DNA of 64,000 nucleotides from a virus: positions 32,001 to 96,000 of the IMG/VR virus record IMGVR_UViG_3300046786_000157. One strand, written 5' to 3'. Position 1 is the first letter of the stretch; each line of letters opens with the position of its first letter. The notes under the pieces were generated by a model, which was not told where the DNA came from, searched no databases, and saw nothing but the letters and a program-made list of their open reading frames with translations. A program made the translations under genes and the position numbers. Positions 3-47,630 of this stretch are shown piece after piece.

Positions 3-3000
3 AGTGTAAATGACAAGATTGTTTTCACTGGAACAGTTTTTGGTGGTGTCACCTCAGGTGCTGTTTATTATATTAACAACATCATAGATGACTATACATT
101 TATGATTTCTTTAGCACAAGACGGTGATGTGTTCCCGGTATCAACTGATACCGGTTCTATGACTGCAACAGTAACACCGTTGACTACAACTGTCACTGTA
201 GCTACTGCGAATTTGTTTGGGTCAATTCAAGTTGGTCAGTATATTACTGATTCAACTAATTTGTTACCAACTAACTCTATAATTTCTGCCATCAATCAGA
301 CAACTACCACTACTACAATTACAGTTACATGGACAAGTGATAGTTTATTCTTGACCACTGCAGTGGCTGCATTAGTCACTACTGATACAACAGTTGATAA
401 CTATGCACTGTTTGAAGGAAGTCGAATTGTCTTTACAGTAGATGAAGATCCAGAAGTAAGAAATAAAATTTATGTAGCACACTTTTCTACAATAAGCTCA
501 TCTGGTTCTCCTGTATTAACATTGTCAGAAGCGTCTGACGGGGAAGTATTGCCCAACGAACAAACAGTAGCATTCAGGGGCTATAATAATGCAGGAAAAG
601 ATTTTCACTTTGATGGTATTGAATGGTTTAGCTCACAACAAAAAGTAAATGCAAATCAACCACCATTGTTTGATGTTTATGACAGTAACGGTATAAGCTT
701 TGGTGATCGTTCAGTATATGTAGGTAGCTCTTTTGCAGGATCAAAATTATTCGCATATGGAATAGCCTCTGCAGGATTAGACGATACAGTCTTGGGATTC
801 CCTGTACGTTATAGCTCAGTAGATAACGTAGGTGATATTAGCTTTGATGTATCTTTGAATTCAGACACATTTGATTATGTGAGTGGTACAAACCCAATCA
901 CACAGAAAGTAAACACTGGTTATGTATATAACTATACTTCAACAACTTCTTATGTAAGAGAGTTGGGATGGCAAACTGCTGTAGCACCTAGTATTCAATA
1001 TCAGTTATTCCAATTAACTTATGGTCCTGAAACACTAGACACGTTCTTCTTGGACATCGCCCCGTTGGGCGAAACACAATCAGAGTGGCCTGTATTTCAA
1101 GTTTATGCTGACAATGTATTGTTAGACAGCACACAGTATTCATATACAACAAATAACAACAGTACAACTATCGTAATGTTGTACACACCTGTAACTACTC
1201 AGATAATTGAAGTAGTGATGTTAAGCGATCAAGTTAGCAAGTCAGCATTCTATACGATTCCTGTCAACTTGAATAACAACCCATTGAACGAAGACTTAAC
1301 TGTTGCAAATATTGGTGACATCCGAGGACAATATCAAAGTATTTTCTACAACAATCCAAATACTACAGGTGAAGTGTTTGGACCAAACAACTACCGTGAC
1401 TTAGGAAATGTTGTACCATGGGGTAACAAGATTATCCAGAACAGCGCATCACTAGTATTACCTAGCGTATTCTTGCGTAAACAAAACCACAATTTGTTTA
1501 ATGCGTTAATGTACAACAGCAGAGAATATATTTCTTTCAAATCATTGTTGATTGATACTGTTAATAAAACTGCATATTCTAGATTACAAACTCCTGCAGA
1601 AATGCTAGACAATGCATTGGATCAAATGGCTGCATCAAAAACAGATAGCGAACCATTCTTTTGGTCTGATATGCTTCCTTCTAAAGCCGCATATGTAGCA
1701 AACACTTATTCTTTTGCGAACTCACTTGATGTTAGTATCTATCCGTTAACAAGAGTTTATGATTTTGCAACAGCAAATTATTACGGTGTATTGGTTTACT
1801 TAGTTAGAACAACCAATGGAGTTACACAGACTACACAACTTATAAGAGATGTTGATTATACTGTAAGCGCAACAGCACCATCATTAACAGTGACACTAGA
1901 TTTGTTACCAAATGATCAGGTTATTATCAAAGAGTACAACCAAACATACGGCTCTTATGCACCTAATACCCCAACTAAAATGGGTCTATACCCTGCGTCT
2001 ATCCCGGGTGTTGTACTAGACTCATCTTATACAATCCCTACATACTTTATCAAAGGTCACGACGGATCATATAATAAGTTATACGGATCATACGATCCTA
2101 CTACTAACTCTTTGGTAGATTTTAGAGACCAAGCGTTACTTGAATACGAAACACGTGTCTACAACAACTTAAAGTTGAGCAATGTTATTCCTATTCAAGA
2201 ATACGAAGTCATGCCAGGGTTCTTTAGAAATACTGATTACTCAAACGATGAGATTTTAAAGATTTACTCAGAAACATTCTTAAACTGGGTTGGTCAGAAT
2301 AGAGTTAACTACAAACGTCAAATTTATAACAAGCAAGATCAGTATTCTTGGAATTACTATCAAAGCGGTAACAAGATTGACAAAGCAGTAATTCAACAGG
2401 GTAACTGGCGAGGTGTGTATCAGTATTTCTATGATACTACTAATCCTGATACTAGTCCTTGGGAAATGCTTGGCTTCAAAAATATGCCATCATGGTGGTC
2501 TGACAGATATGGTCCTGCACCATACACAAGTGATAACTTGGTATTATGGGGAGACTTAGCAGCCGGTATTAACTGGAACAACGGTAATCCTGTTGTGATT
2601 GAGCAAGCAATTCGTCCTCAATTATTAGAAGTTCTACCAGTTGATAGCGAAGGCAATCTAGTATCACCGTTTGTATCATTGGTTGGCAACTACAACAGTA
2701 ACATTTTCCAACGTGATTGGAAAGTGGGTGACGCGGGTCCTGCAGAATTCTCATATCGTAGAAGCAGTTCATATCCGTTTGACTTAATGCGAATACTTGC
2801 ATTAACAAAACCAGCAGAGTTTTTCAACTTGGGTGTTGACGTTGACCACTATAAGTACAACGCTGAATTCAACCAGTATTTGGTTAATAACAGAAGTCAC
2901 TTAAAGTTGAGTGATATTGATGTTTATGGCAATGGTACTGCGGTTACAAGTTATGTCAACTGGATTGTTGATTATGAAAAACAAGTAGGTGTAGATGCTA

Positions 3001-12000: not shown

Positions 12001-15000
12001 TGGCTAAGTTTGGCGACTTTATCGTGTTACCCGAACCTTTCTCGTTCAATCAATCAGTTGTCAAATACAACAATCGAGTATATCGTTGCATCGTCAGTAA
12101 TAATGACGTTGAATTCATATTTGGTAAGTGGGAATTATTAGACAGCGGTAACAGATACTTGAATGCACTTGATAGAATCATTGGTTACTATCAACCTACT
12201 GCTAACATGCCAGGTCTAGACTTGACTCAGTTAGTTGAAGGCATCACTTATCCAAATAGTACTTACAAGGGTAATGCATTTGCCCCTGAACAACAATTTG
12301 AACTTGATACTATCTTGCAAGATCAACCGTTCTACCCTACTCAAGTTGACAACGTTTCAATTACATGGGACGGCTTAACGTATTTAGGAGCATCTAATAC
12401 ACCTGACTACTCAGCAGTCATTGCTAGCGCAACCGGTGATGAGTGGACTATTGCTAAGTTAGCAAATACTTCATTGAATTTCACTGATATGATATATGCA
12501 GGTGGTTTCTACGTATTGACTACTCGCAACGCCGCTACTCCTATCTATAGAAGTAACAACGGAATTGACTGGACATCTAATGGTCAGTATACTCCATATA
12601 GTGCTACTCCATACGATGACTTCCCTTACGATGTAACTGCATTAGATGTAGCATCTATCTCGTTGAACAGTGTAGGTTATTCTACCTCATTGAATCTATG
12701 GGTAGCAGTAGGAGAGAACATTGTAACTAGTTCAGACACATATATTTGGAGAGAAACTTTTGTATTTGATGATACATTGATACACCAATTCAATGGTGTA
12801 GACGGTGTTTCTGTAACTAGCTTTACAGGCTTTGTTGCTGTAGGTAAAGGTCAAGAGTACGATTATTCTACTGGTGTAACTCAAACAGTTTACACTAACA
12901 TTTTAATGACAAGTACAAATGGACTTCAGTGGAACAAGATCAATTCATTGACAACTAAGGGATTTAACAGTGTAACTGACAACGGTTCTTTAATTATCGT
13001 TGTAGGTGAAAATGGTGTTATATATTCAAGTGTAAATAGCCAGTTATGGTTAGGTGTATCTGAATCATTTGTATACGGTACATTTGATACTACAAATCAA
13101 GTTAGTGTTCAAAGCACACTTGGATTTGCAGTCAACGATAAGATTAGATTCACATCATCATTTGGATCAATAAGTTCTAGTACTGATTACTGGATTAAAA
13201 CAGTAGACTCATCAAGCCGTGTAACAATCTCTACATCATTGGGTGGAAGTACATTGACATTGACAAATGCTCAACCGTCTGCTACAACACAAATGTATCA
13301 TTATCCAGAAACAGATACATTGAATGATGTATATTTTGCTGATTCATTGTTTGTTGCTGTAGGTGAAAACGGTATTATCAGAACATCAAGTGATGGCTAT
13401 GCTTGGACTACACAAACATCTGGTACTAGTGAAAATCTAAACGGTGTTATGTTTAACAGTGATGATTCTGTGTGGATCGTAGTAGGTGACAATAATGTCA
13501 TCTTGCAGAGCAGTGACTCAGGTATAACATGGGAAAGCACTTCTCTGTTCACAGTTGACCCAACTATATATGATGTTCAAGGTAATGAATTCATGTACGG
13601 TTATGGTCCTGAAGAACTAGTTCCTGGTTTAGTTACCGACACTATTACTATGACTATAGCAACACGTCCTGGTACAAACTGGTTAGCTGAAGAATATGCA
13701 CACGTTGGATACAACGTGGTATCAAAAGAGATCACCCCGATATCAACCACACAAACTGTTTACAGCTTTGCTAGAATGGTTCAAACCCCTACCCAACTTG
13801 CAGTATTTGAGATTGACGGTACTACTGGGTTGAGTACAACATTAGTTGGTCCTAATAGTTATTCAATAACACCTGATTATACTATTGATTGGGTTACTGA
13901 CACGATAATATTGAATACTCCACTAGGAGGAACACCTACAAATAGATTACGAGTTGATGTATACGAAACCGGTAACGGAGATCAATTAGTTAAAGCTAGT
14001 ACAAAAACAGATCCAATTCGCCTAAATACATCTACTGGATGGGATGAAATCTATGTTAACTGTAATTACAGTGCACCAATCTTCAATGGTTCAGGGTTAA
14101 TTCAACCAGGCACAAGTGAAAGAAATGCGACTGCAATACAGACTGATTCTACAACAGATACTATTTTGTTTGAAGATGTAAGTCAATTCAGTGTCAATGA
14201 ACCAATCACGTTCCAAGGTGCAGTATTTGGCGGAATTTTAGAGGACACAACATACTATGTAAAGACAGTTAGTACTATTACTAATAAGATTACTGTCTCA
14301 CTAACATATAATATAACTACAAGTACAGCCGGCCCAACACTAGCATTAACTTCTGGCACTGGCAGTATGGTTGCTGTTATTACAGTTGGATCAGGTGCAG
14401 TTTGGACTGCACCGCTAGTATATCGTAATGGTGGTAGATTATTGCGCGGAACAACCGGAACAGTGACAAAAACGAACGGCGGCACTAATACTATCACGTG
14501 TAACACTACTGGTGCAATGATTGTAGGTATGCATATTGTATTCAGTGATACAATGTTTGGTAATGACATTGAAACTGAAAATGTGACAGCAGGCGCATTC
14601 ACTGTGGGGCAGACATATACTATTGTTAGTGTAGGTACTACGGATTTCACTAGTATAGGTGCATCTGCAAACACTAGAGGTGTAGACTTTGTAGCAACAG
14701 GGGTTGGTTCTGGTACAGGTGTAGCGGCTCCAATCTACTTCATTGATTCTATTGTTGATTCAAACGAGTTTACTATTTCTAAGACTTACTTAGGTGCAAC
14801 ATTAGATTTATCTAGCGCAACTGGTGGTGCTTCATTTATAACAAATGACTTTGCATTTGGTATAGCTGATAATGGTGTTTCTGCTAAAATGATGTTTGCA
14901 AGTCACTATGACGCTAGAGATGACTACATAACATATACGTTGTTTGGCGAAACAACACCGGAGCAATATGGATATACTATACCTGAAGTACAGTATTTCA

Positions 15001-16856
15001 CTGGTGCAACAGGTCAAACTGAGTTCATTTTATTGAACAACGATGACATGGACAACGTAACTAATGCTGTAGTTGAAATAGACGGAGTTAGAGTTACTGA
15101 TACTGAATATACCATTGATGCATATGCAGATACTCTTACTTTTGTGACTGCACCAAGTGCAGGAGCAATTATTTCAGTAACTAGTTACAATGATACATTA
15201 CGTCAGTATTTCACTACTCAGTACGGCATTACGGGTAATACAGTATCGGCAATCAGTGCAATATCTAACGCTATAACTTCGCCTATCGCATCTACTAACG
15301 TAACTGCAACTGACGGAACTACTGAGTATATTACGTGTGTTTCTACTACTGGATTTATTGTAGGACAAACAGTAGAGTTTAAGGGTACTGGTTTTGGTGG
15401 CATTGCAACTGATGGTACAGTTTACTTTGTACGTGCTATCATTGATAGTACTCACTTTACTATTCAAAATGAATCTGGTACAATAATTAACTTGTCAACA
15501 GCTTCAGGATTATGTGTAGCTTATGTCGGTGGACAGCCCGCAGTTCGTGTAACTACTAATACTGCTAACGGTTATGCTGACGGTGATGTTGTTATTATCG
15601 ACGGAACTACCGGCTCAACACAATTGAATAATCAAATATTCTACGTAAAAGTAATAAGCTCAACACAATTTGACTTGTATTCTGAACCATACAATTCTTC
15701 ATATGCCGCAGTTAATTATCCAGTCACGGATATTTCTGCATATACAGGCGGAGGATACACATGGATACAAAACATATTCCCGATCATTACAGTAGAATCT
15801 ACTGGAACAACTGTTATTGTCGATAGTCATAGAATATTAGCAAACACTACACAACTAGTTGTTGATACTCCTGTACTATTCTCATTATTTGGAACACAAA
15901 TCGGTGATGTGTTGAACTCAGGAATTGTTGTAGGAACAACATACTATGTAAAAGAAATATTCAACGTAAGTGAGTTTTCTATCTCTGAAACACGTGGTGG
16001 TTCTGAGTTTGCATTAGTTGCTGACGCACAGACATTCAATATCACTCAGTGGGAACAAGAAAACGTTGACAGACTTTGGGTCACGGTTAACGGATACAGA
16101 GTTCCTTCTAGCTCATTGAGAATTAATCCTAATAATCAAGTGAGTATATTGACCGCTATAGCATCCGGTGATGAAGTTATCATGACTAGTATGATTCCAA
16201 GTGCTACACCAAACGAAGAGGTTTATCAATTGAACATTAATCAAACAAATCAAGCGACTGTGTATAGAGCAAATACTAATACTAGAACATGGTTGACTGC
16301 ACCGTTGTATAACACTTCAAGCAGTATTCAGGTTCAGGATGTTACTCGTGTTACTGATACTATAGTTCAGGAAGTAACTGCTCCTGCTGAAGTAGACGGT
16401 GTCACTAGTATTGGTTTGACAGCAGATAAGAATATAATTTCAGCAATCACTGTATATAATAACACTAGTTCTCAATTAGTCACAAACTATACAATAACTG
16501 TTGTTGATTTAGCCCCAACACTAGTTATTTCTTCGGGAGTTTCAGCAGGTGATTCAATAACTATCACGATTATTGAGGGTAATTTGGTCTATATCAACGG
16601 TGAGCAAATCAAGTTCACCTCCGTGGATCTGGAAAATAACACATTATCCGGTCTACAGAGGGGCACGAACGGTACCGGTGAGCAGTTCGCTATCCCGTTA
16701 TATGCTGAAGTTTTTGGTATATTGTCTAGTAATAGAATGACTAACGTAGAGTACGCAGAAGTATGGAATTCATACGATTATAACACTACGGACGGTGATC
16801 CTCTACAGATTAGCAATACAGCCCCTGCAATATTCTTAAATACGGACGTCAGCTAA
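3..16856 (+). CDS. Giant modular virion structural protein (tail/baseplate-associated), 5'-truncated, >5,600 aa
   Basis: The frame of the 102..16856 ORF stays open back to base 3 (SVNDKIVFTGTVFGG...), so the true start lies upstream of the window. Thr/Ser/Asn-rich. About 15 copies of a ~50-aa repeat (G.P..F.G..FGG....YYV....F.IS), FG-GAP-like repeats (~5170-7040) and BNR/Ycf48-like VAVGxNG...SSDG..W repeats (~12400-13540). Lies directly before tail-spike genes. Confidence 0.8.
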   Translation, partial: SVNDKIVFTGTVFGGVTSGAVYYINNIIDDYTFMISLAQDGDVFPVSTDTGSMTATVTPLTTTVTVATANLFGSIQVGQYITDSTNLLPTNSIISAINQTTTTTTITVTWTSDSLFLTTAVAALVTTDTTVDNYALFEGSRIVFTVDEDPEVRNKIYVAHFSTISSSGSPVLTLSEASDGEVLPNEQTVAFRGYNNAGKDFHFDGIEWFSSQQKVNANQPPLFDVYDSNGISFGDRSVYVGSSFAGSKLFAYGIASAGLDDTVLGFPVRYSSVDNVGDISFDVSLNSDTFDYVSGTNPITQKVNTGYVYNYTSTTSYVRELGWQTAVAPSIQYQLFQLTYGPETLDTFFLDIAPLGETQSEWPVFQVYADNVLLDSTQYSYTTNNNSTTIVMLYTPVTTQIIEVVMLSDQVSKSAFYTIPVNLNNNPLNEDLTVANIGDIRGQYQSIFYNNPNTTGEVFGPNNYRDLGNVVPWGNKIIQNSASLVLPSVFLRKQNHNLFNALMYNSREYISFKSLLIDTVNKTAYSRLQTPAEMLDNALDQMAASKTDSEPFFWSDMLPSKAAYVANTYSFANSLDVSIYPLTRVYDFATANYYGVLVYLVRTTNGVTQTTQLIRDVDYTVSATAPSLTVTLDLLPNDQVIIKEYNQTYGSYAPNTPTKMGLYPASIPGVVLDSSYTIPTYFIKGHDGSYNKLYGSYDPTTNSLVDFRDQALLEYETRVYNNLKLSNVIPIQEYEVMPGFFRNTDYSNDEILKIYSETFLNWVGQNRVNYKRQIYNKQDQYSWNYYQSGNKIDKAVIQQGNWRGVYQYFYDTTNPDTSPWEMLGFKNMPSWWSDRYGPAPYTSDNLVLWGDLAAGINWNNGNPVVIEQAIRPQLLEVLPVDSEGNLVSPFVSLVGNYNSNIFQRDWKVGDAGPAEFSYRRSSSYPFDLMRILALTKPAEFFNLGVDVDHYKYNAEFNQYLVNNRSHLKLSDIDVYGNGTAVTSYVNWIVDYEKQVGVDATQNISDLLKNVDVRLIYRVAGFTDKNLLKFYVEKGTPNSRNASLLIPDESYSVLLYDNQPFDRIVYSGVIIQLTKNGYTVFGNSQSDAYFTIQDPLINGNYTTVEVDDLTVKLANDYADSVSYVPYNTEFYTVQEVSQFIESYGTYLERQGVLFDQVENGVPVNWRQMVAEFMYWSQTGWQTGSIVTMNPAATLLAIDKENSIVQPLTLRQQNFILNQNLYPIQAKDMSVLRDGTAFTVQPLNQGDTVAYGQFNMSNFEHGIVFDNVTLFNDIIYNTITGLRQTRILTKGTKTAEWNGTVDAQGFILNQDNIQEWNKEVKYTTGSIVKYKNKYWIATKIIQAKELFEERDWKQTDYNEIQKGLLPNSSTRSYESTLYYDVNKANLENDADLLSFSLIGYRPRDYMALADLTDITQVNVYKNMIKNKGTRNATNAFKGANLPQGGIDYELFENWAILSGEFGGVLNSNFVEFKINEKYMTGNPSIVGLTRATPDEGVQQEVPIYSLFNYGRPVTDANILPTVPTNTPSTIFPDAGYVNFNDVKMVSYFYNNMASAINQNGTVIPLDDFYVRDYVWLADYLGTWQVYTPTSMGQVVTAKNNLNGTVTLTFATPHNLSKYEAFAVVNFDVSINGYYITTLVIDPYRVIINLNLNPNILNVTGQGIGFKFQSQRVATPADIANLPLLDSEFIKNKVWVDANDDGAWAVYRKGINYQYESEITKENTVTFGSAVAYTSTLGYLISDAGDGKAYRYTYNDLTNVYNLVQTISHGTSFGTAIAYADNIFAISEPTTAAQVHIYDLQNTTLVDDLIVYQSPITALGGSTNWGSAVAISGDKNWLFISATDLNRVYVYRLSQVTSEYEYITYLTVAGLTTGDLFGYSIATDYYGDTVVISAPGKDYSATIDNWGYTYVFDRSIQNIEALYTTPVLSSQNFTLAWTPSTITTTATATVDSTNRITCTSTAGFVGGTLGQPVIFSGSVLPNSNIDPNTVYYIKTVVDATHFTISLTRNGDVFDVTTDSGSMIVNVQSTPLYVSVNGTILEDNDYAVIGNTISIVKSINAGDIVNVSGNQFTQVQVLTTEATPRVGVHFGQSVDTTTYASEIIVGAPFALNSENQEGAVYRYTNGGGKYGVIIGTSNCSLTVARNVLINGYLVSIPAGDAVVASNYINSSKITNVQASAFNGKLVISLIDNNLATPNEKLILAVTDSATLAELGISIFTQTQVVTCPHKTGPTQFGNVVKFNQAGSFVASAPTGTRYVSTTFDFSDDENQDDDTIFDNNTTQWVDSYPYAGAVYMFDYLAVDNESLLTPGKFAYAQSVNALNQEYGAQPLYGHAVDFSDYHVIVGTPNFTSGDSNGQVITYINASGQQDWSVYRSSSPVVDINRIQNIQLFSAETNNTLDNLDYIDPLQGKILGSVRENIDFISNIDPAGYNTTPVADSTQRPLAWTANKVGQIWFDTSAVRFVNYHQNDNTYNSKYWSTLFPGSNVAVYTWISSNVPPSSYTGPGVPYDRTVYSVDYISNPSGSLTPVYFFWARNTNIIFENIGKTLADSVIQAYILSPKSSGIAYFTPLLPNVFGLYNCSSYINANDTVLHIGYSTGTNDDVSHSRYSLIRANYADDFLPGLPTTTSTDTPQYLYDRMLDSMCGVDETGAVVPNPYLPKAVQLGVLVRPRQSFFINRFLALKNYLTYANEILSLYPITETRQSAFLNKSGEFYNTSDYWNYVNWWAVGYNDNTKSAVQVPIYADLAALEVSSGTIARVAANGDGKSETYVKNTDGTWTRIGLTDGTIAFSSALWDYAEARLGFGDNFYDTNVYDEYPSEQTRYIIRALNEQIYINDLLIYRNKSLILMFEYIQSETIESQNYLPWLNKTSFIDVAHTIRELLPLEVFQSDNQDFLSGYINEVKPYHVVVKEFLFKYTKTDVYEGDITDFDLPAKYNTTLEKFITPELVYSNPSSDNQYLPSDAIWNDPAYSQWFNNYGVTLTGQPDYPISMLATYIALNTNAFAVDNAYGFPINGVVKIGTELIGYSDVDRNLNVISGLTRGVDGTAITTHIPGETISMDLPAVLVLNGGRGYAEPPKVTAYIDTTIYPEPDEVAQLVAVMNLDSVLSIEVVNPGKGYAVLPEIIIDSAVNVTFSSSEVSVTTNTIQLYAPLLATGDIVKYDVMDGTTPIQGLAVGQWYYVRVLETVPTVTVGLYSRYNNAVNDQDRIELYSTGTGVGHILSEGARASCISSSSPVRENNIAIRFDRTTYNSQVIDWLAGRFYGSYYAGTYNNSQSISSSGITLETTQPPIDSILASAQGVSFEMVDVTNDQLLTWSSFIRSVKSTESANDSIRLSPLDGNNPDLSELSLNASGTTIGFYVGMPVKFKGAVGSSNIVNDTVYYVKEVLNELDFTISTTVNGSVFALGDQTISVAGLQCFVGEVTNTALITVNYPGIRTATNTTKTSNIVTAPLNPTGTGGTAGFYVNLPIFFTGNVFGGVIENLTYYVTTVIDSQTFTMSENQDPVIVTIYSANASTNIIVGSSTLELAVNDPVIFNNMTIAGSVVTNFGGIIDGTIYYVSSIINPTNFTISEVVNGGTFDITSTVVAASTTSASMTSQVDTVALTTATGEMAMNVSLPVSPGQVNGQLFTMYPTSEQYSGLSGTNGSIISRSIVKTLTSVNRIAITENSGGLTNVYNNLPVKVASNIGGLTSGTQYYVIENDYIEVEVTNTSSTGNALTCSSTASLYVDMPIIFSGTGLGTIDLAVEYYVKSIPSSTQFTVTNTPGGIETVLTNDNGTMTGTGSPYIVVSTTLGGSAVALSTATGPVTIDQTPIGTPVVDASYIMGGYRVVIEDGASGYAVDNTITILGTSLGGATTANDLVMTVDSIDSNGVILSVICSGTPAGSTEQYYLKVVSANQFEVYSNSQMTIPVSGIDFPYYGVVSTIATETVASSDEITVEDSSTFDINDPVVFTGTVFGGVTLGQTYYVIATPSATSVKVSETIGGSALALSNDTGTMTMAKFGDFIVLPEPFSFNQSVVKYNNRVYRCIVSNNDVEFIFGKWELLDSGNRYLNALDRIIGYYQPTANMPGLDLTQLVEGITYPNSTYKGNAFAPEQQFELDTILQDQPFYPTQVDNVSITWDGLTYLGASNTPDYSAVIASATGDEWTIAKLANTSLNFTDMIYAGGFYVLTTRNAATPIYRSNNGIDWTSNGQYTPYSATPYDDFPYDVTALDVASISLNSVGYSTSLNLWVAVGENIVTSSDTYIWRETFVFDDTLIHQFNGVDGVSVTSFTGFVAVGKGQEYDYSTGVTQTVYTNILMTSTNGLQWNKINSLTTKGFNSVTDNGSLIIVVGENGVIYSSVNSQLWLGVSESFVYGTFDTTNQVSVQSTLGFAVNDKIRFTSSFGSISSSTDYWIKTVDSSSRVTISTSLGGSTLTLTNAQPSATTQMYHYPETDTLNDVYFADSLFVAVGENGIIRTSSDGYAWTTQTSGTSENLNGVMFNSDDSVWIVVGDNNVILQSSDSGITWESTSLFTVDPTIYDVQGNEFMYGYGPEELVPGLVTDTITMTIATRPGTNWLAEEYAHVGYNVVSKEITPISTTQTVYSFARMVQTPTQLAVFEIDGTTGLSTTLVGPNSYSITPDYTIDWVTDTIILNTPLGGTPTNRLRVDVYETGNGDQLVKASTKTDPIRLNTSTGWDEIYVNCNYSAPIFNGSGLIQPGTSERNATAIQTDSTTDTILFEDVSQFSVNEPITFQGAVFGGILEDTTYYVKTVSTITNKITVSLTYNITTSTAGPTLALTSGTGSMVAVITVGSGAVWTAPLVYRNGGRLLRGTTGTVTKTNGGTNTITCNTTGAMIVGMHIVFSDTMFGNDIETENVTAGAFTVGQTYTIVSVGTTDFTSIGASANTRGVDFVATGVGSGTGVAAPIYFIDSIVDSNEFTISKTYLGATLDLSSATGGASFITNDFAFGIADNGVSAKMMFASHYDARDDYITYTLFGETTPEQYGYTIPEVQYFTGATGQTEFILLNNDDMDNVTNAVVEIDGVRVTDTEYTIDAYADTLTFVTAPSAGAIISVTSYNDTLRQYFTTQYGITGNTVSAISAISNAITSPIASTNVTATDGTTEYITCVSTTGFIVGQTVEFKGTGFGGIATDGTVYFVRAIIDSTHFTIQNESGTIINLSTASGLCVAYVGGQPAVRVTTNTANGYADGDVVIIDGTTGSTQLNNQIFYVKVISSTQFDLYSEPYNSSYAAVNYPVTDISAYTGGGYTWIQNIFPIITVESTGTTVIVDSHRILANTTQLVVDTPVLFSLFGTQIGDVLNSGIVVGTTYYVKEIFNVSEFSISETRGGSEFALVADAQTFNITQWEQENVDRLWVTVNGYRVPSSSLRINPNNQVSILTAIASGDEVIMTSMIPSATPNEEVYQLNINQTNQATVYRANTNTRTWLTAPLYNTSSSIQVQDVTRVTDTIVQEVTAPAEVDGVTSIGLTADKNIISAITVYNNTSSQLVTNYTITVVDLAPTLVISSGVSAGDSITITIIEGNLVYINGEQIKFTSVDLENNTLSGLQRGTNGTGEQFAIPLYAEVFGILSSNRMTNVEYAEVWNSYDYNTTDGDPLQISNTAPAIFLNTDVS

Positions 16857-31462: not shown

Positions 31463-32532
31463 CAAGTTGCTATGTGATTCATCATCAACAAGCATACGAC
31501 AATACATGGGATAAAGAAATCAGTGAGATAAAAACACTAAACCCTGATAGAATTATTCTCGAATGCTTGGAAGAACAAGAATGGAATTACATATTTAGAC
31601 ATTTCTTAGACAACATATTGCCATGGGTTAGAGAACATAACAAAGTAATACAAGTATTAGCGCCCGATATCGGTAATGTTGTGATGGAACATGTAGAAGT
31701 TTATCCGACAGTCGGTGTGATGCTAATGCAAGCAAATGATGTTGACAAGTGGATCAAGCAATCACATGATGCGGGTTTGGAAGAAAGATACATAGCTAAA
31801 AGATTTCCAAAAGTTCAATTTCCATTGTTGTTTAATTGCTACATTAATAAATATAGCCTTGAAAGAAGGAAGCTTATTGATGCATTATCTAAAGAGAATT
31901 TATTAAATGAGGGTATAGTAACTTGTCACTTCACTGCGGGTGAATGGACTCATCATGATGGGTCTAAGATAGTAGACCCGGCTGAACCTGATTTTGAACT
32001 ACACTCGAAACCCGAATATAGGCCATCAGTATTACCTAGGAATTTCTTCAAAGGGTTCTTTGATATAGTCCCTGAGTCTCGTTACGCCAACAATGAGTTT
32101 ATGATGACTGAGAAGACTATCAAAAGCATTATTAATTATAAACCCTTTCTAGTATTGTCTTCTAAAGGATATCACAAAGAGTTCTTAGTTAAACGTATGG
32201 GGTATCAATTGTATGATGAAATGTTTGACTACAGCTTTGATTCATGTGATAACATTGATGACCGAATTGAAGGCATAGTAGAGAACATAAAAAGACTACG
32301 TGACAAATTATCAGGGCCAGCAGAATATGACAATAAATATAACTTAATGGTTGCTCTCTCTAAGAAATTGCATTACAACCGGGCTAAATTTTTTGATATC
32401 TTTTATGATCCTGATAAAATAATACCCGAATGTTTACAATTTGTAAGAAAGACAGATGATTATAAATTCTATGGTAATACAGATGGGTTTTTGTTTCATC
32501 ACATGAAACAAATGAATTGGATTAAATTATGA
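31459..32532 (+). CDS. Putative glycosyltransferase, paralog of the 29178 C-terminal domain
   Basis: DIVPESRY...MTEKTIKSI...KPFLVL...GYQLYDEMFDYSFD. Confidence 0.45.
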   Translation: MTSCYVIHHQQAYDNTWDKEISEIKTLNPDRIILECLEEQEWNYIFRHFLDNILPWVREHNKVIQVLAPDIGNVVMEHVEVYPTVGVMLMQANDVDKWIKQSHDAGLEERYIAKRFPKVQFPLLFNCYINKYSLERRKLIDALSKENLLNEGIVTCHFTAGEWTHHDGSKIVDPAEPDFELHSKPEYRPSVLPRNFFKGFFDIVPESRYANNEFMMTEKTIKSIINYKPFLVLSSKGYHKEFLVKRMGYQLYDEMFDYSFDSCDNIDDRIEGIVENIKRLRDKLSGPAEYDNKYNLMVALSKKLHYNRAKFFDIFYDPDKIIPECLQFVRKTDDYKFYGNTDGFLFHHMKQMNWIKL

Positions 32533-40741: not shown

Positions 40742-43700
40742 ATGCTAAGAGATGTATTTTATTACGGACAGAAACCTAACGCCCATCCAAGAGAAAAGTT
40801 TGCACAAGACTTAGTTGATGCTAGAAATCAAGCAACAACAGAACACTTTTGGATCATAAACGAATTTTGCGACTATACAAAGTTTGATTGGGACTTTGAT
40901 TTTGAATTTTTACACGATGACGATGTATGGGCTGAGAGTCATAACAATGTATGGCCTAGTAAATATCAAAAAGATAGTGGCACATGGTTATGTGCAAAAG
41001 AATTTAGTGCTATCATAATCTATCGCAATGACGTAGACCCTGTACCCAGAAAAACTGTTTCACATAAACACTGGCAAGTATTATCGCCTATTGACGAAAC
41101 TAAGTTTGACTTTGGGTGGCATCCTGATCCATCTGACCCTCCGTATATCTACGTTTGGGGCAATCAGTGGTACCCAGGCACAGTAATGCCCACAGTAGAA
41201 TATCATGTTGATGGTGCAACACAGCGCAAATTTGTTGATACAAGTTTGGCGATACTAGCACAGCAACCTAAAAACTTTGAAGTGTTTGAAGAAGTTGACC
41301 ACTTTGACTTTAGTTGGGTTCCTAATCCAACTAGCCCACCTTATATCTATGCTTGGGGCAATCAATGGAATGACCCTGAAGATAAAGTTTCAGTGCAGTA
41401 TGTAGTAGAAGGTGGTACAGAATATAAGTTCATGCATAACAATGCTAGACGCAAACCCTGCATGGACAATTGGGTAGTACCTACTAACGTAGACGTTAGT
41501 AACTTTGATTTTAGTTGGGAGCCAAGCCCAGCAGAACCACCGTTCATATACCAGTTCGGCACACAACATCAAAAGACAGGTGGTCCAAGATACATAGTTG
41601 AAGATGCAACAGAGGTTAAGTACGTTGACATACTAAAAGCCAAAGCATTACCGTCAACAGAAAATTGGACTCTTCCAAATAATATAGACATTGATAACTT
41701 TGATTTTAGTTGGCACCCCGATGATACTAGCCCTCCTTATATCTATTACTTTGCAACACAGTGGGCATTAAGTGGTGGACCTATCTATACAGTACCTGAA
41801 GCGACCGAAGTCAAATACGTAGAAGATGTTCAAGCAAAAGCATTACCAAACAAAGCTAATTGGGAAGTGCCTGCATTCATTGATAGTGATAGCTTTGACT
41901 TTAGCTGGCACCCATATGTAGAAGATGAGCCTTATATCTATCAATTCGGCACACAATGGCAGAAGACAGGTGGCCCTAAGTATATCACCCCCGGCTCACA
42001 CAAGAACAGTCCTGTAAAGTATATTGATACACGTATTCTTAAAGCAAAACGTTTACCATCAAAGCAAGGGTTTACTCATGTGAATGGATCGTTAATTGAA
42101 GATTTTGATTACTCTTGGCACCCTGACACAACAGAAGAACCATACATATATAAATTCGGAAGTCAATGGTATTCAGCAGAGATACTATCTGCGATTGAAT
42201 ATGTTGTTCCCGGTGCAACACAAGTAAAATATGTAACAGATATTATTGCTACGTTAGCACCCTCTAAACAAAACTGGGTTATTGCAGAAGATGTTGAAGT
42301 AGCTAACTTTGACTTTAGTTGGGTGCCTAACCCACATGATCCTCCCTACATTTATCGCTGGGGTAACAAATATGTTAGTAACAAATTCAAGCCCACACTA
42401 GAATATCATGTACCCGATGCAACTGATATCAAGTACATGGATGACAATGTGGAAGTATTACCTGAATGGGATCGCTGGCAACTATTTGGCAATGTTGATA
42501 AAGAAAGTTTTGATTTCTCATGGAGACCTGATCCACGTGAACCTGCTTATATCTATCGTTGGGGTAACAAATACGTTAGTAACAAGTTTAAACCTACGGT
42601 AGAATATCATGTACCAGGAGCAACTGACATTAAGTACATGGATGATAGTGTAGGTGTGCTTCCTGAATGGGATCGTTGGGAAATACCTGATGACATTGAT
42701 AAACAGAGTTTTGATTTCTCATGGAGACCTGATCCATTAGAAGCTGATCTTATTTGGCAGTTCGGTACACAATGGCAGAAGACAGGTGGACCAAGATATG
42801 TAGTTCCTGGCGCCACAGAAGTCAAATACATAGACAAACTAAAAGCTCGCCGCTTACCATCACCCGACAATTGGGAGATGCCGGACAAAGTAAAGATAGC
42901 TAAGTTCGATACTAGCTGGCATCCTGATGCTACTGACGGCCCATACATATATCAATTTGGTACTCAGTGGGTTTTGACAGGTGGACCGAGATATGTAGTT
43001 CCTGGCGCAACTGAAGTTAAGTTCGTTGAAGAAAATAATGCAATTGCCGCACCAGATCACGCACCTTGGATAACACCTAGTGATATTGATGGCATCAGCT
43101 TTGATTACTCTTGGCACCCTCACCCTGATGACCCACCATTCGTCTATCAATTTGGTACACAGTGGCAAAAGACAGGCGGACCTAAATATATTGCTGAAGG
43201 TGCGATTGATGGTGAGACTGCTGTAAAATATATTGACACTCGTATTTTGAAATCTAGACGTTTGCCTAGTAGAAACAACTGGGTTATTGAAAATGCAATT
43301 GATGTAAGCACATTCGATTTTAGTTGGCACCCGGATGCAAACTCTCCTAAGTATATCTATCAATTCGGTACATTGAGTAATGATACAGATGGCCCACGAT
43401 ACGAAGTACCTGATAATAATGGTGAAATTGTATTCTTAGAACGCACTAAGCTTAAAGATGATGAAGTAGCATTCCCTCACTATTTTATTGAAACTACACT
43501 TGATGATTTAGTTAAGAATCATCCTAACGAAGTATTTTGGGCATTAAACCCTGATATTGATTACTCTGCATTTGATTTCAATTGGAGACCTAGTATTGAG
43601 CAAGCACGTTATATACACGCATTTGGCTCAGAGGATAACATCAATACACAAACATACTTTGTGTCAGGTCCTATGTGGCATCAAGGCTACAGAGATATCA

Positions 43701-45481
43701 ACTATGTTGAGAAAAAGATAGAAGTTAACTATATCATTGATTTGTTCTTTGTGGATAGAGGTAACAAAGAATCAAACTCTCGCTTTGAGAGATTGAAACA
43801 ACAATTTGGAAATAGAATACAAAAAACTCGCTACTTGAACAGTTGGGTTGATACAATCAATCGCTGTATCAATCGTTCATCATCTAATCTATGTTGGATA
43901 CTTAATAGTGAACTAGACTATATTGGTTTTGATTTCAAGTATTATCCTAACCCATGGCAGATGAATATGGTTCATGTATTTGGAACACAGTGGAGTCATT
44001 GGGGCACAACCTTCATGGTCAATCGTGAAACGTTTGCAAAAGATACCAAATATGTTAAAATTATTGAACACCTTTCTAATTTGAACTTTGTTAAAGATAG
44101 AAATAGTAGAGCCACTAACTGTTTATATGATGTGTTCTTAGTAGATCATGGTAACCGTAGTGTCACTAAGGTATTGAGAACAATTCAAAGTCGTGTATCA
44201 TCTGATATACCTGTCAATCTTGTAAAGTACACCGATAGTTATTTTGAAACATTTAAAGAACTATTAAAGACACTTCCTGAAAAGAAAGAGCATTACATAT
44301 GGATATGCTCTAGTGTTTGTGATTATGCTAAATTTGATTTTAGTTATATCTGTGATCCATACGCAAAAGAACAACTGCATGTGTTTCCTAGTGACAAACA
44401 GAAGTTTGGTGATACATTCTTAGTTAACGTAAACAAACTACGTGAATTGATAGCAGACATGAGTAAGTTGGAAGAGTATACAAAGATTAATTACAACCAA
44501 CATCAACGTGTTGCTAGACTACCTGCACCATCTATCATAACTGAAGGTGATACACATGTATCTAGTATCAATACTGACTTTGACTTCCCGTATGCAATCT
44601 TTACTGCGAACGACAACACAGACAACGGTATTATTGATGTTGAACCAATGAGCTTATGGTCTCCTGAACACAAGAACATCATTGTTACAACTACGGGTGC
44701 AACTAGAATCATTGCACCTAAAGAAGTTAAAGAATATGTTAAGCGTGAATTGTATGATTATCCGTACATCAAGACTAACAGCAAGCTAGGCAAGTCTACT
44801 CCAATGGACATTGTGTTCTTATCTAATGGTGAGGCAGGTGCAGACGCTAACTACGAACATTTGTTAAGAGTTACACATGGATTAGCTAATCGTGTTGTTA
44901 GAGTAGACGGAGTAAATGGTCGTGTGCAAGCATATCATGCGGCTGCTGATGCAAGCAATACACCTTGGATGTTCACTGTGTTTGCTAAGTTAAAAGTCAG
45001 CAACAAGTTTGATTGGAACTGGCAACCTGATAGAATGCAATTACCTAAACATTATGTATTCCACGCTAAAAACCCAGTTAACGGATTGGTCTATGGTCAC
45101 CAAGCTATGATTGCATATAACAAGAAAATTACATTGAAGAACAACGGTAAGGGTCTTGACTTTACAATGGACGATGAACATGAGATTGTTCCTTTGTTGT
45201 CAGGTGTTGCTAATTTTAATACTGATGTTTGGTCTACGTGGCGTACTAGCTTCCGTGAAGTTGTTAAGTTGAAATCCGACACAACAGACGAGAGTAAAGA
45301 ACGATTGAATGTTTGGATGACAGAGGCGTCAGGTAATCATAGTGAATGGTGTCTACGTGGCGCACAGGATGCTAGTGATTACTTTGATAGTGTAGGCGGT
45401 GACTTCTTTGAACTACGTGACAGTTATGAATGGGCATGGTTAAAGAACAGATTCCTGACATTGTATCCTAATGAAACCTGA
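40742..45481 (+). CDS. 1,579-aa tandem-repeat protein with degenerate GT-A-like C-terminal domains
   Basis: 12 tandem ~65-70-aa repeats (W..P..D...FDFSWxP...PYIYxFGxQW..GGPxY.VPGATEVKY), then several GT-like units. The last unit (DIVFLSNGE...RVDGVNGRVQAYHAAA...NPVNGLVYGH) is homologous to 22071. Confidence 0.7.
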   Translation: MLRDVFYYGQKPNAHPREKFAQDLVDARNQATTEHFWIINEFCDYTKFDWDFDFEFLHDDDVWAESHNNVWPSKYQKDSGTWLCAKEFSAIIIYRNDVDPVPRKTVSHKHWQVLSPIDETKFDFGWHPDPSDPPYIYVWGNQWYPGTVMPTVEYHVDGATQRKFVDTSLAILAQQPKNFEVFEEVDHFDFSWVPNPTSPPYIYAWGNQWNDPEDKVSVQYVVEGGTEYKFMHNNARRKPCMDNWVVPTNVDVSNFDFSWEPSPAEPPFIYQFGTQHQKTGGPRYIVEDATEVKYVDILKAKALPSTENWTLPNNIDIDNFDFSWHPDDTSPPYIYYFATQWALSGGPIYTVPEATEVKYVEDVQAKALPNKANWEVPAFIDSDSFDFSWHPYVEDEPYIYQFGTQWQKTGGPKYITPGSHKNSPVKYIDTRILKAKRLPSKQGFTHVNGSLIEDFDYSWHPDTTEEPYIYKFGSQWYSAEILSAIEYVVPGATQVKYVTDIIATLAPSKQNWVIAEDVEVANFDFSWVPNPHDPPYIYRWGNKYVSNKFKPTLEYHVPDATDIKYMDDNVEVLPEWDRWQLFGNVDKESFDFSWRPDPREPAYIYRWGNKYVSNKFKPTVEYHVPGATDIKYMDDSVGVLPEWDRWEIPDDIDKQSFDFSWRPDPLEADLIWQFGTQWQKTGGPRYVVPGATEVKYIDKLKARRLPSPDNWEMPDKVKIAKFDTSWHPDATDGPYIYQFGTQWVLTGGPRYVVPGATEVKFVEENNAIAAPDHAPWITPSDIDGISFDYSWHPHPDDPPFVYQFGTQWQKTGGPKYIAEGAIDGETAVKYIDTRILKSRRLPSRNNWVIENAIDVSTFDFSWHPDANSPKYIYQFGTLSNDTDGPRYEVPDNNGEIVFLERTKLKDDEVAFPHYFIETTLDDLVKNHPNEVFWALNPDIDYSAFDFNWRPSIEQARYIHAFGSEDNINTQTYFVSGPMWHQGYRDINYVEKKIEVNYIIDLFFVDRGNKESNSRFERLKQQFGNRIQKTRYLNSWVDTINRCINRSSSNLCWILNSELDYIGFDFKYYPNPWQMNMVHVFGTQWSHWGTTFMVNRETFAKDTKYVKIIEHLSNLNFVKDRNSRATNCLYDVFLVDHGNRSVTKVLRTIQSRVSSDIPVNLVKYTDSYFETFKELLKTLPEKKEHYIWICSSVCDYAKFDFSYICDPYAKEQLHVFPSDKQKFGDTFLVNVNKLRELIADMSKLEEYTKINYNQHQRVARLPAPSIITEGDTHVSSINTDFDFPYAIFTANDNTDNGIIDVEPMSLWSPEHKNIIVTTTGATRIIAPKEVKEYVKRELYDYPYIKTNSKLGKSTPMDIVFLSNGEAGADANYEHLLRVTHGLANRVVRVDGVNGRVQAYHAAADASNTPWMFTVFAKLKVSNKFDWNWQPDRMQLPKHYVFHAKNPVNGLVYGHQAMIAYNKKITLKNNGKGLDFTMDDEHEIVPLLSGVANFNTDVWSTWRTSFREVVKLKSDTTDESKERLNVWMTEASGNHSEWCLRGAQDASDYFDSVGGDFFELRDSYEWAWLKNRFLTLYPNET
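41070..43450 (+). repeat. Intragenic tandem coding repeat array (12 units of ~200 nt)
   Basis: The recurring FDFSW(H/R/V)P and QFGTQWQKTGGP motifs are visible in protein and DNA (cagaagacaggtgg recurs). Boundaries approximate. Confidence 0.8.
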
Positions 45482-46157
45482 TGTATATATCTGTGGATGT
45501 AGCTTCTCTACCGGGGCCTATTGTACTGACACACATGTCGAATATAATACCCCGTATCCAGAACTGTTTTGTATAGATAAAACGCTATCCTTCGAAAATA
45601 TTGCATTCAATGGATCATCAAATTATGGAATTGCGAAACAAGTTGAATACGCAATTAAACAACAACCTAAATTAATTTTAGTTAACGTTACTACGTCATT
45701 GAGATTTGACTGGACTATACCAGAGTCACGATTAGAAGATTTACCTACACTTGCTAATTTTGTATTCAACAACAAATTGAATACATTAGAGCCAGACACA
45801 GAAAAATGCGTACACTCGTCTTCTTTGATAACACTAGTCAATGGAAATAAAAATAGAATACTCACTGAATATGTAGCAACATTTGTAGACCCGTGGTTGA
45901 AGAGTGATATGGATAGGTTAATAATTTTAGGTATGATACACCAATTGAAGGTATCAAAAATCCCATATCAGATTGTAAATTTTAATTCTGATTATACATT
46001 TTCGGCACCCTATGTGCTTGAGTACCCTTATAGTGTGTTCACTAAAAATTTTCCAGTTGCGACAGACCCTAATCACTTTAACAGTGCAGGCCACTTAGCA
46101 TTATCTAAAGTATTACTAAGTACAATACCCAAAACTATTGACGTTAACTCTGTATAA
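45471..46157 (+). CDS. SGNH-fold protein
   Basis: CGCSFS, NGSSN, DPNHF..GH. Confidence 0.55.
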   Translation: MKPDVYICGCSFSTGAYCTDTHVEYNTPYPELFCIDKTLSFENIAFNGSSNYGIAKQVEYAIKQQPKLILVNVTTSLRFDWTIPESRLEDLPTLANFVFNNKLNTLEPDTEKCVHSSSLITLVNGNKNRILTEYVATFVDPWLKSDMDRLIILGMIHQLKVSKIPYQIVNFNSDYTFSAPYVLEYPYSVFTKNFPVATDPNHFNSAGHLALSKVLLSTIPKTIDVNSV

Positions 46158-46166
46158 ATATATACT
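46138..46166 (+). promoter_or_regulatory. Composite tmRNA promoter: sigma70 TTGACG-17-TATACT plus late TATAAATA
   Basis: -35 at 46138-43, -10 at 46161-66, full T4 late consensus TATAAATA at 46153-60. Confidence 0.75.
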
Positions 46167-46237
46167 GTAAGTTATTGCTGTATGAAGCAAAGAGAAAAGT
46201 GTTCTGGACGCGGGTTCGACTCCCGCCTGGTCCACCA
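46166..46237 (+). ncRNA. ssrA: tmRNA acceptor piece (ends in encoded CCA)
   Basis: ...TGTTCTGGACGCGGGTTCGACTCCCGCCTGGTCCACCA; 5' end inferred from the promoters. Confidence 0.85.
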
Positions 46238-46248
46238 AAAGTGATCTT

Positions 46249-46383
46249 ATGAATGATAAAATGAAAATTTGTGTAGTGTGTGAGAACTACAATGAGCAGA
46301 ATAAATCCTGTAAGTTGTGTGGGTGCTACATGCCTGCAAAAACATTAGTACCGTTCGTTAAATGCCCCGCAGGCAAATGGTAA
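46249..46383 (+). CDS. 44-aa six-cysteine protein encoded inside the tmRNA intervening segment
   Basis: Hand-translated MNDKMKICVVCENYNEQNKSCKLCGCYMPAKTLVPFVKCPAGKW*. The CxxC...CxxCGC.M..K......CP.GKW pattern matches a small phage Cys-rich family I recall as DUF6171 (unverified). Confidence 0.8.
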   Translation: MNDKMKICVVCENYNEQNKSCKLCGCYMPAKTLVPFVKCPAGKW

Positions 46384-46396
46384 GATTATTTCTGAT

Positions 46397-46615
46397 GGGC
46401 CAGTCATGGTTTCGACAGGGCAAAGAGTAACAGAGTGGACAGCTCGGGAAAGCAGAACCCGTAGGATTGGTAGAATGATCTGAAGCAAGCTAGTCTTGAC
46501 AGTAGGATTTTCCGGTCGTAGAAGCAAAAAACCATAAATGCAAACGATTCAGTTTACGCATTGGCTGCTTGATAAAAGCATCCTAGGGTAAGACATACCT
46601 AGTAACAGAAACTCA
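46397..46615 (+). ncRNA. ssrA: tmRNA coding piece
   Basis: Starts GGGCCAG, carries the A-rich resume context (AAAAAACCATAAAT-GCA) and the tag, then a short CTAGG/CCTAG hairpin and a terminator. 3' end approximate. Confidence 0.85.
46540..46575 (+). other. tmRNA proteolysis-tag reading frame ANDSVYALAA**
   Basis: GCA AAC GAT TCA GTT TAC GCA TTG GCT GCT TGA TAA. Confidence 0.92.
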
Positions 46616-46616
46616 A

Positions 46617-46643
46617 GAAAGGCTCTTCGGAGCCTTTCCTTTT
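46617..46643 (+). terminator. Intrinsic terminator after tmRNA
   Basis: GAAAGGCTC-TTCG-GAGCCTTTC: 9-bp stem with a UUCG loop, followed by CTTTT. Confidence 0.85.
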
Positions 46644-46650
46644 ATAAATA
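46643..46650 (+). promoter_or_regulatory. Late promoter TATAAATA, probably leaderless
   Basis: Abuts the terminator U-tract; ends 5 nt before ATG 46656; no SD. Confidence 0.65.
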
Positions 46651-46655: not shown

Positions 46656-47630
46656 ATGAAAAACTTCTTTTGTCCTGCGCCGTGGCGCTCAATTTATTAC
46701 CATGTAAACAAGTCTGCGGTGTGTTGCATTAGCTCTAAGAGATTAGACATGTCTCCTAATGAGTTTCTCAAGAGTGATTACTTAGAAAATTTAAAAACTA
46801 AATTTTTAAACAATGAGTTTGATGAAACATGCACTGGATGTAAGAGACTAGAAGATGCAGGACTACAAAGCATACGCCAACATATGGTTGCATTGTATGG
46901 TGAAGACATAACTCCTAAGATAGATTACATGGAGTTAAGAACTAGCAACTTGTGCAACTTTCAATGTAGGATGTGTAATGCTGATAACAGTTCATTGATT
47001 GCAGGTGAAGTTCGTAACATAACAGACAAAGACTGGGACGAGATATTAACTCTATCAGAAAATTTGAAATACTTGACGTTAACTGGTGGCGAACCATTGT
47101 TGATTAAACACTACTATCAACTATTAGACCATTTAATAGAGAAGAATAGAACAGACATTGAACTAAGAATATACACAAATGCTAGCGTATACAATCCAGT
47201 CTTCATTGAAAAAATGTTAAAGTTTAATACGATTGTAAATCTAAGCATAGATGGAGTAGGAGAAACTGCTAGTACTCAGCGTGTAGGCACTGACTGGAAC
47301 GTAGTCAATGAAAACATACAAAAGTTTTTAGCCTTACCAGTTAAGGTAAAATTCCATTCTACCTTTACAGTTTTGTCTATAGTAGATGTACATTCATTAG
47401 CAGAGTATTTTGCTACGATAGCAAAGACTAACCCGCACTGTGGTTTTTCTGCACATACTGCAATTCTTCCTAAGGACTTAACAATCTATGGTATAGATTC
47501 TTCTAGTGCGGTCACTGCAATAGAAAGCATTGACAAGGCATTAGTAATATTGACTGATCCTAGATTTGGACAACTACGTAAGCAACTTATGTCGTACAGA
47601 ACCATAATTGACAACAAAACCAAAACGTGA
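46656..47630 (+). CDS. Compact radical SAM protein with N-terminal twitch domain
   Basis: FCPAPW...VCC...CTGC; CNFQCRMC; TGGEP; YTN. Confidence 0.85.
   Translation: MKNFFCPAPWRSIYYHVNKSAVCCISSKRLDMSPNEFLKSDYLENLKTKFLNNEFDETCTGCKRLEDAGLQSIRQHMVALYGEDITPKIDYMELRTSNLCNFQCRMCNADNSSLIAGEVRNITDKDWDEILTLSENLKYLTLTGGEPLLIKHYYQLLDHLIEKNRTDIELRIYTNASVYNPVFIEKMLKFNTIVNLSIDGVGETASTQRVGTDWNVVNENIQKFLALPVKVKFHSTFTVLSIVDVHSLAEYFATIAKTNPHCGFSAHTAILPKDLTIYGIDSSSAVTAIESIDKALVILTDPRFGQLRKQLMSYRTIIDNKTKT

Follow-up and report, generated by a model that had tools for sequence, protein, structure and literature searches.

A selected six-cysteine mini-protein gene in the spacer of a two-piece phage tmRNA

Introduction

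Can the spacer of a two-piece tmRNA, which is removed when the RNA matures, also serve as the messenger of a protein? This question is raised by a locus in a stretch of viral DNA of 64,000 nucleotides (IMG/VR record IMGVR_UViG_3300046786_000157, positions 32,001 to 96,000), here called the window, for which an initial annotation made from the letters alone had described a complete ORF between the two parts of a permuted tmRNA gene. Permuted tmRNA genes are known from Alphaproteobacteria, some Betaproteobacteria, Cyanobacteria, and aquatic phages (RF04321, RF01850; PMC11915505; PMC9004378), and marine and aquatic phages typically carry tmRNAs of the two-piece kind, for example the OM43 phage Melnitz and the pelagimyophages (PMC9004378). 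The permuted tmRNA is matured by tRNA-processing enzymes, and the intervening segment (IVS) is absent in the mature two-piece tmRNA (PMC11915505). As contents of such spacers, a tmRNA database paper of 2025 gives one tRNA-Ala gene and one repetitive element (PMC11915505). A riboswitch in the 3′ domain of a phage tmRNA gene has been discussed, spacer ORFs have not (PMC9004378). The initial annotation knew of no description of protein genes in the spacer of a two-piece tmRNA, and full-text literature searches, with subscription papers outside their coverage, likewise found none.

The tmRNA gene and its transcription unit

Rfam and ARAGORN place the permuted (two-piece) tmRNA gene at window positions 46176-46640 on the plus strand, on which all features described below are located. 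RF04321 matched the permuted tmRNA at 46176-46572 with 110.8 bits (cut-off 47), and RF01850, the betaproteobacterial-type two-piece tmRNA, matched 46124-46640 with 97.2 bits (cut-off 84). Both alignments show an insertion of about 150 nt, which separates the CCA from the 5′ acceptor strand. ARAGORN also called the locus as a permuted tmRNA. Based on the alignments with RF04321 and RF01850 and on ARAGORN, the acceptor piece (46176-46237) represents the 3′ half of the tRNA-like domain and consists of the T-arm, the acceptor 3′ strand CTGGTCC (46227-46233), A73 (46234), and an encoded CCA (46235-46237). It is followed by the IVS of 159 nt (46238-46396), which lies between the CCA and G1 and corresponds to the insertion. 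The coding piece (46397-46640, according to RF01850) comprises the acceptor 5′ strand, the D-loop analogue GGTTTCGAC, the pseudoknot region, the tag frame, and the 3′ hairpin. The 5′ strand of the tRNA-like domain, GGGCCAG (46397-46403), forms 7/7 pairs with CTGGTCC, including G3.U70. The tag frame (46540-46575), as reported by ARAGORN and read from the sequence, encodes ANDSVYALAA and ends with two stop codons; it has an Ala resume codon and a hydrophobic ...LAA end before the stop. All coordinates initially given for the two pieces, namely the CCA at 46237, the 5′ end at 46397, and a spacer of 159 nt, are confirmed by Rfam, ARAGORN, and the acceptor stem.

A promoter-like sequence TTGACG-17-TATACT (46138-46166) is located directly upstream of the tmRNA; it is a consensus match only, with 10 of 12 positions, and the sole promoter-like site on the plus strand from the end of the upstream gene (46157) to the ORF. 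At the other end, an intrinsic-terminator-like hairpin (46617-46638) with a T-run (46617-46646 in total) closes the transcription unit, and promoter-like and terminator-like elements bracket the whole tmRNA unit. No internal promoter-like site was found on the plus strand upstream of the ORF within this unit. An exact match to the T4-late-like motif TATAAATA (46153-46160) overlaps the sigma-70-like promoter of the tmRNA. At the position of this motif, the related tmRNA loci L126 and L038 described below carry ATAAATA, and the remaining upstream region is unconserved.

The source DNA stretch is present in freshwater metagenomes, and RNA-library contigs from two freshwater metatranscriptome studies matched positions 46418-46612 in the coding piece with 100% identity, while further RNA-library contigs covered the acceptor piece (46166-46241). 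As assembled contigs, they show the tmRNA sequence in RNA libraries, whereas RNA ends, precursor, and spacer are not resolvable in such data; the position of 46243-46377 outside the contig cover carries no weight on excision or stability of the spacer. Two other RNA-library contigs (X17 and X18) bridge the acceptor and 5′ pieces with different letters in between, the joins being at 46241/46389 and 46251/46382. These bridging contigs belong to relatives whose spacer differs, and they may represent either precursor RNA or carried-over DNA.

A protein gene under purifying selection

The spacer contains the ORF of 44 codons with six Cys codons that had been annotated at 46249-46383 (ATG at 46249; TAA at 46381-46383, stop included). 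An ORF of at least 44 codons was obtained in 1.0-1.6% of shuffled spacer sequences. The length of the ORF is therefore only moderately unlikely by chance, and its status as a gene rests on comparative evidence. The permuted tmRNAs of L038 and L126 contain the same ORF with unchanged offsets (positions 12..146 in a spacer of 159 nt); L126 was found via the protein P0001, and besides L038 itself, five metagenome copies of the L038 type were present. Between the window and L126, the protein identity is 86%, with pS 0.72, pN 0.06, and dN/dS 0.03 (Fisher p 3e-11). Between the window and L038, 28 of 44 amino acids are identical, with pS 0.94 and pN 0.24 at saturated dS (Fisher p 8e-11). The comparison of dN and dS proposed in the initial annotation has become the main support of its gene call: the relatives keep the ORF and show no neutral pattern. 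Because of purifying selection in three lineages and membership in a protein family (see below), the spacer ORF is identified by these comparisons as a real gene under strong selection on its product.

An untranslated chance ORF in a long structured spacer would agree with the frequency of equally long ORFs in the shuffles and with the presence of ORF-less hairpins among long spacers (13 of 63, see below). It does not agree with synonymous sites that are saturated or nearly so at a conserved protein in three lineages, nor with the significant homology to a large protein family, and can practically be dismissed.

With 12 kb around the locus as query, megablast against GenBank phages gave no match, and in a distant blastn search only the acceptor piece of the tmRNA was matched, in Stenotrophomonas and Xanthomonas phages. 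No cultured phage carrying this spacer gene was found among the GenBank phages. A metagenome scan for the family-specific peptide beside a tmRNA 5′ end gave near-identical copies of the L038 type only.

Protein family and predicted structure

A full HMMER scan with the 44-aa protein yielded 782 cluster representatives at E ≤ 1e-3; a word-indexed protein search yielded a single relative. In an alignment of 63 sequences, the residues C8, C11, C21, C24, C26, K31, C39, P40, and W44 are invariant, and all nine are kept in the window protein. Of 63 relatives found by phmmer, 62 match Pfam DUF6171. The window protein itself matches PHROG 13558 with an E-value of 7.4e-11, and DUF6171 with 15.7 bits (E 0.02), which is below the cut-off of 27 bits and covers profile positions 41-80 of 80 only. 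It has the pattern CxxC...CxxCxC...K...CP..KW in common with the DUF6171/PHROG 13558 proteins of phages, e.g. gp29 of cyanophage Syn9. Genes of the known members stand free and frequently encode an additional N-terminal extension, whereas the copy in the window is limited to the 44-aa domain and lies within a tmRNA gene. Free-standing homologues were detected by tblastn in 170 phage records, including T4-like cyanophages, the Acidovorax phage ACP17, and Stenotrophomonas phages of the genus Menderavirus; in the latter, the homologue is located about 1.4 kb upstream of a permuted tmRNA with a short spacer.

For the 44-aa protein, AlphaFold (AF2) predicts a small fold with good confidence (pLDDT 88.8). 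Foldseek found no structural neighbour in the PDB, the best hit of a wide structure search with VIA-align was not significant (Z 2.1), and a profile search against the PDB gave only a non-significant similarity to a zinc ribbon (bL32, E 0.1). From its sequence we infer that the six-Cys protein of 44 residues probably binds metal. No paper on DUF6171 was found in the searchable literature, and the finding described here gives this uncharacterised domain a defined expression context.

Spacer ORFs in other phage tmRNAs

A search for ORFs in the spacers of other permuted phage tmRNAs, as suggested in the initial annotation, showed that the window is not a singular case. For this search, IMG/VR was scanned with an exact-motif pattern, in which 145-206 nt were allowed between the CCA and the GGTTTCGAC motif. 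Since the pattern requires exact TTCGA.TCC and GGTTTCGAC and missed L126, all counts are lower bounds. The scan returned 86 loci. ARAGORN or an acceptor stem with 7/7 pairs confirmed 81 of them, in which 63 different spacers with a length of 134-194 nt occur. Of these 63 long spacers, 50 contain an ORF with 33 or more codons whose start lies 8-24 nt after the CCA (mode 12), with ATG as start codon in 47 cases; the other 13 are plain hairpins lacking an ORF. The spacer ORFs belong to about 27 unrelated families. For 12 of the 13 families with more than one distinct sequence, pS in diverged pairs was well above pN, with dN/dS mostly between 0.05 and 0.37. Short spacers (0-69 nt) were found at least 231 times and outnumber the ORF-bearing long ones, and by these sequence counts ORF-bearing spacers are a sizeable minority of the phage permuted tmRNAs. 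In 185,579 bacterial and archaeal genomes, the same pattern gave 15 matches, of which 14 were chance tRNA matches and one a true permuted tmRNA (L111), located on an Alteromonadales MAG contig and carrying a phage-type spacer ORF. In two 65-nt spacers (L299 and L338), TAAGGG...ATG opens a frame of some 17 codons whose end lies in the conserved TGAT preceding G1, and mini-ORFs may extend to short spacers.

The ends of the ORFs fall into two groups. The stop codon of 29 of the 50 ORFs still belongs to the spacer, in many cases at a distance of 1-15 nt from the RNase P site and frequently 1 nt before G1. The other 21 ORFs reach 27-90 nt into the mature 5′ piece before a stop. Examples of ORFs without an in-spacer stop are found in L019, L022, L026, L031, L032, L037, L051, L052, and L054, and further in L056, L068, L073, L074, L080, L086, L089, L092, and others; these run-through ORFs read the mature tRNA-like 5′ end as ...DGPVMVSTG. 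Cleavage by RNase P would turn a run-through ORF into a message without stop codon, and thereby into a substrate for tmRNA itself.

The 64-nt acceptor piece of the window is 100% identical in L065 and L084 and 98% identical in L083, and the ORFs in all three loci are unrelated to that of the window. The gene for a 1,579-aa repeat protein upstream of the window tmRNA is syntenic in L083, which has a different ORF, and in L126. Unrelated ORFs in near-identical tmRNAs, together with upstream synteny, indicate that the spacer is exchanged as a cassette among related phages. As judged by this comparison, the spacer is a general exchangeable slot that was filled many times by unrelated small genes. 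The exchange probably occurs by recombination between the highly conserved tmRNA halves, which suggests a simple recombination route for the shuffling of small genes among phages. Mini-proteins of this kind could have been missed by annotation if genes are not called inside RNA genes.

The use of one slot by about 27 unrelated ORF families, swapped between near-identical tmRNAs, would also be expected if the ORF were pure cargo, moron-like or selfish, at a harmless insertion site, with its translation unlinked to tmRNA maturation. Copies of the family that stand free elsewhere, including those near the short-spacer tmRNA of the Menderavirus phages, point in the same direction. Against free insertion, the placement of the ORFs is regular, with starts at 8-24 nt after the CCA and stops often abutting the RNase P site, and a conserved helix includes both the start and the stop region; this argues for constraints of the precursor. 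Pure cargo overlaps with the explanation preferred below and differs solely in the missing coupling; we regard it as rather unlikely, yet as the most serious of the alternatives.

A covarying helix closes the spacer

According to the initial annotation, the flanks of the ORF pair over 12 bp and form a stem of its own. The pairing itself is present: when the IVS is folded (z -2.4), the MFE and centroid structures alike contain the 12-bp stem. Its 5′ arm (46239-46250) spans the site equivalent to a Shine-Dalgarno sequence (SD), GTGATC, and the AT of the start codon, and its 3′ arm (46380-46391) spans the TAA stop codon together with the final nucleotide of the Trp44 codon. When the acceptor strands were added, a near-continuous helix of 8+2+17 pairs was obtained (z -5.0), and 0 of 200 shuffled sequences folded as well. 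The last four bases of the spacer, TGAT, are opposite ACCA, so that the closing helix stacks on the acceptor stem.

Covariation was analyzed with 60 distinct spacer ends of phage tmRNAs by comparing position i from the CCA with position L-3-i, for i = 1-11. In this register, 83% of the cells were paired, versus 45-55% in shifted registers; with partners shuffled among loci, 60.5 ± 1.3% were paired, with a maximum of 65% in 1000 shuffles. Most helix positions showed several pair types, for example GC 17, AT 13, TA 10, and GT 9 at position 5. Between the window and L038, 11 of 12 helix pairs are kept, and at two of them both partners have changed in a compensatory way (T-A to G-C; T-A to A-T). 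The covariation that had been demanded as a check of the stem is clearly there; the assignment of the stem to the ORF is not upheld. The helix is also found in the ORF-less long spacers, which are GC-rich plain hairpins, and in short spacers of 50-66 nt. On this covariation evidence, it is a conserved element of phage pre-tmRNAs in general and not private to the ORF, and its most plausible role is that of a precursor element which joins both halves of the tRNA-like domain and carries the ORF in its loop.

The position of start and stop codons in the two arms means that a ribosome on the ORF must affect the folding of the tRNA-like domain. The ORF could accordingly act like a leader peptide, as a sensor in which the act of translation controls both folding and processing of the tmRNA and the peptide has no function. 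In such a case, selection on the amino-acid sequence would not be expected, but dN/dS is 0.03 and the six Cys as well as K31, P40, and W44 are invariant; also, the same domain occurs as free-standing genes in hundreds of phage clusters. We therefore consider a pure sensor very improbable.

Four of the ORF-less, GC-richer spacers (L018, L041, L060, and L095; 134-165 nt) form long near-perfect hairpins with an end-to-end duplex of -22 to -35 kcal/mol. Such ORF-less hairpins seem to represent a second, purely structural type of long spacer. As a speculation, the long continuous helix might be a target for a double-strand-specific nuclease.

Ribosome binding

The initial annotation had noted the absence of an SD. 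This is correct for the window insofar as its leader lacks a canonical motif of the GGAGG type. It does not hold in a wider sense: the window leader contains GTGATC (46241-46246) two bases before the ATG, and by sequence reading these 6 nt are complementary to GAUCAC, the conserved 3′ tail of 16S rRNA; the orthologue in L038 has AAAAGGAATTC ahead of the ATG, with an SD-like AAGGA at that spot. The leader of L126 has neither a canonical SD nor the GTGATC complement; the former has been lost there as well as in the window. Among the long spacers, an SD-like 4-mer in the first 12 nt was found in 32 of the 50 ORF-bearing and in 0 of the 13 ORF-less ones. The position of the SD directly after the CCA, in the L038 orthologue as well as in these 32 spacers, weakens the earlier idea of a near-leaderless mRNA. 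In the window as a whole, an SD-like motif precedes 13 of 44 long ORFs, so that SD-independent initiation seems to be usual for this phage, as far as its gene starts indicate. Some short spacers also have the SD-like AAGG, there as a component of the helix, and its occurrence in spacers may thus be partly structural.

The pre-tmRNA as putative messenger

Having no promoter of its own, the spacer gene would be transcribed within the pre-tmRNA from the promoter at 46138-46166, and most simply, the pre-tmRNA would be its mRNA. The best explanation of the locus, to which we assign a probability of about 0.7, is a functional and expressed two-piece tmRNA whose spacer carries a cargo gene on the pre-tmRNA that is translated before maturation. 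We infer translation from the precursor, the order of events, and the processing enzymes as follows. Ribosomes would load on the nascent precursor about 130 nt ahead of the synthesis of the 3′ arm, and a ribosome completing the ORF would hold the 3′ arm unpaired. After the end of translation, the helix could form by pairing of spacer positions 2-13 with 143-154 and would stack on the ACCA/TGAT pairs and the 7-bp acceptor stem. In the formed helix, start codon, stop codon, and ribosome-binding region would be hidden, and the tRNA-like domain would fold. Finally, RNase P, cleaving 5′ of G46397, and 3′ trimming at CCA46237 would free the two tmRNA pieces, and the spacer would be discarded. This proposal includes a testable competition between translation and maturation of the RNase P type.

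The use of the spacer as an mRNA, as assumed in the initial annotation, is supported insofar as a real, selected gene lies inside the promoter-terminator unit of the tmRNA; the messenger could be either the precursor or an excised fragment. The 21 of 50 ORFs that find their stop only in the mature tmRNA favour, for those loci, translation of the uncleaved precursor. In the window, the stop of the ORF is 13 nt before the RNase P site, and an excised fragment could therefore also be the mRNA at this locus. The peptide would then be made after processing, from a spacer of about 150 nt that is cut out near the CCA and by RNase P and whose leader would measure no more than 11 nt. With the stop inside the spacer, as in the window and in 29 of the 50 ORF-bearing spacers, such a piece is a complete cistron, and the short window leader without canonical SD would fit as well. 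However, the fragment keeps both arms of the helix, so that the start region stays paired, and with a 5′ monophosphate and no protective structure it should be short-lived according to general knowledge of RNase E. Furthermore, cleavage by RNase P would deprive 21 of 50 related ORFs of their stop codon, and the usual endonucleolytic cut downstream would presumably clip an SD located 2-7 nt after the CCA. Synthesis from an excised spacer is for these reasons distinctly unlikely, more so than pure cargo.

Starting from translation of the precursor, a further-reaching proposal is possible, which we put forward tentatively and at somewhat less than even odds: the spacer hairpin could be a dedicated expression-and-exchange module, with the tmRNA halves as recombination arms, the helix as a kinetic switch, and the precursor serving first as mRNA and then as tmRNA. 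If this were true, co-infecting phages would swap small genes through the conserved tmRNA halves, and dose and timing of about two dozen mini-protein families, in the window that of the DUF6171 six-Cys protein, would be tied to tmRNA synthesis.

Comparison with known systems

With the known permuted tmRNAs, the locus shares the order of acceptor piece with CCA, IVS, and coding piece, the 7-bp stem with G3.U70, and a tag ending in ...ALAA. The difference is in the IVS, which is treated as discarded RNA in those cases and holds a selected protein gene here. The two-piece tmRNA spacer, so far taken as thrown-away RNA, would thereby be a working gene in the window, and in related freshwater phages it is a recurrent slot for small genes.

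ORFs in removed parts of tmRNA genes are known from group I introns in the T-loop, some of which contain homing-endonuclease ORFs (PMC11915505). Like these, the window has a protein ORF in a stretch of the tmRNA gene that is missing from the mature RNA. It differs in that there is no intron and no splicing or religation, the insertion being located between the two pieces, and in that a Cys-rich protein and not an endonuclease is encoded. In agreement with this, Rfam at gathering thresholds reported no intron family in the window; the T-loop is intact, and the insertion follows the CCA.

Messengers derived from tRNA-containing precursors include the tRNA-tufB operon of E. coli, the tRNA cluster of phage T4 with its small ORFs, and mitochondrial transcripts with tRNA punctuation. 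In these systems as in the window, a coding region lies between tRNA-type processing sites of one primary transcript. In the window, by contrast, the flanking sites are the halves of a single tRNA-like domain, which must pair across the ORF, so that the mRNA is the loop of a precursor hairpin. Dual-function RNAs acting as regulator and as mRNA, such as SgrS/SgrT and RNAIII/hld, likewise combine a functional RNA and a small-protein cistron in one transcript, with the difference that in the window the coding part is removed from the functional RNA. The arrangement as such is related to three known things, namely the permuted tmRNA, ORFs located in those parts of RNA genes that are removed, and mRNAs flanked by tRNAs, and it offers a compact natural case of a single transcript as messenger and as precursor of a stable RNA.

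Neighbouring genes

The 1,579-aa protein mentioned above is encoded at 40742-45481 (+) upstream of the tmRNA and contains more than a dozen repeats of the unit FDFSWHPD...PPYIYxFGTQW. Its gene is separated from the tmRNA by a gene for a protein of 228 aa (45471-46157). In L083 (49% identity) and L126, a homologue of the repeat protein is encoded immediately before the tmRNA. On the other side, a radical-SAM gene (46656-47630, +; PHROG 14086, E 3e-19) starts 10 nt after the T-run of the tmRNA terminator. Its closest relative (L003, 41% identity) is located inside an array of 16 tRNA genes, and no tmRNA was found at the relatives of this gene. Near the beginning of the window, positions 102-16856 (+) are occupied by a single ORF of about 5,584 codons counted from the first ATG, which is very large for a phage gene.
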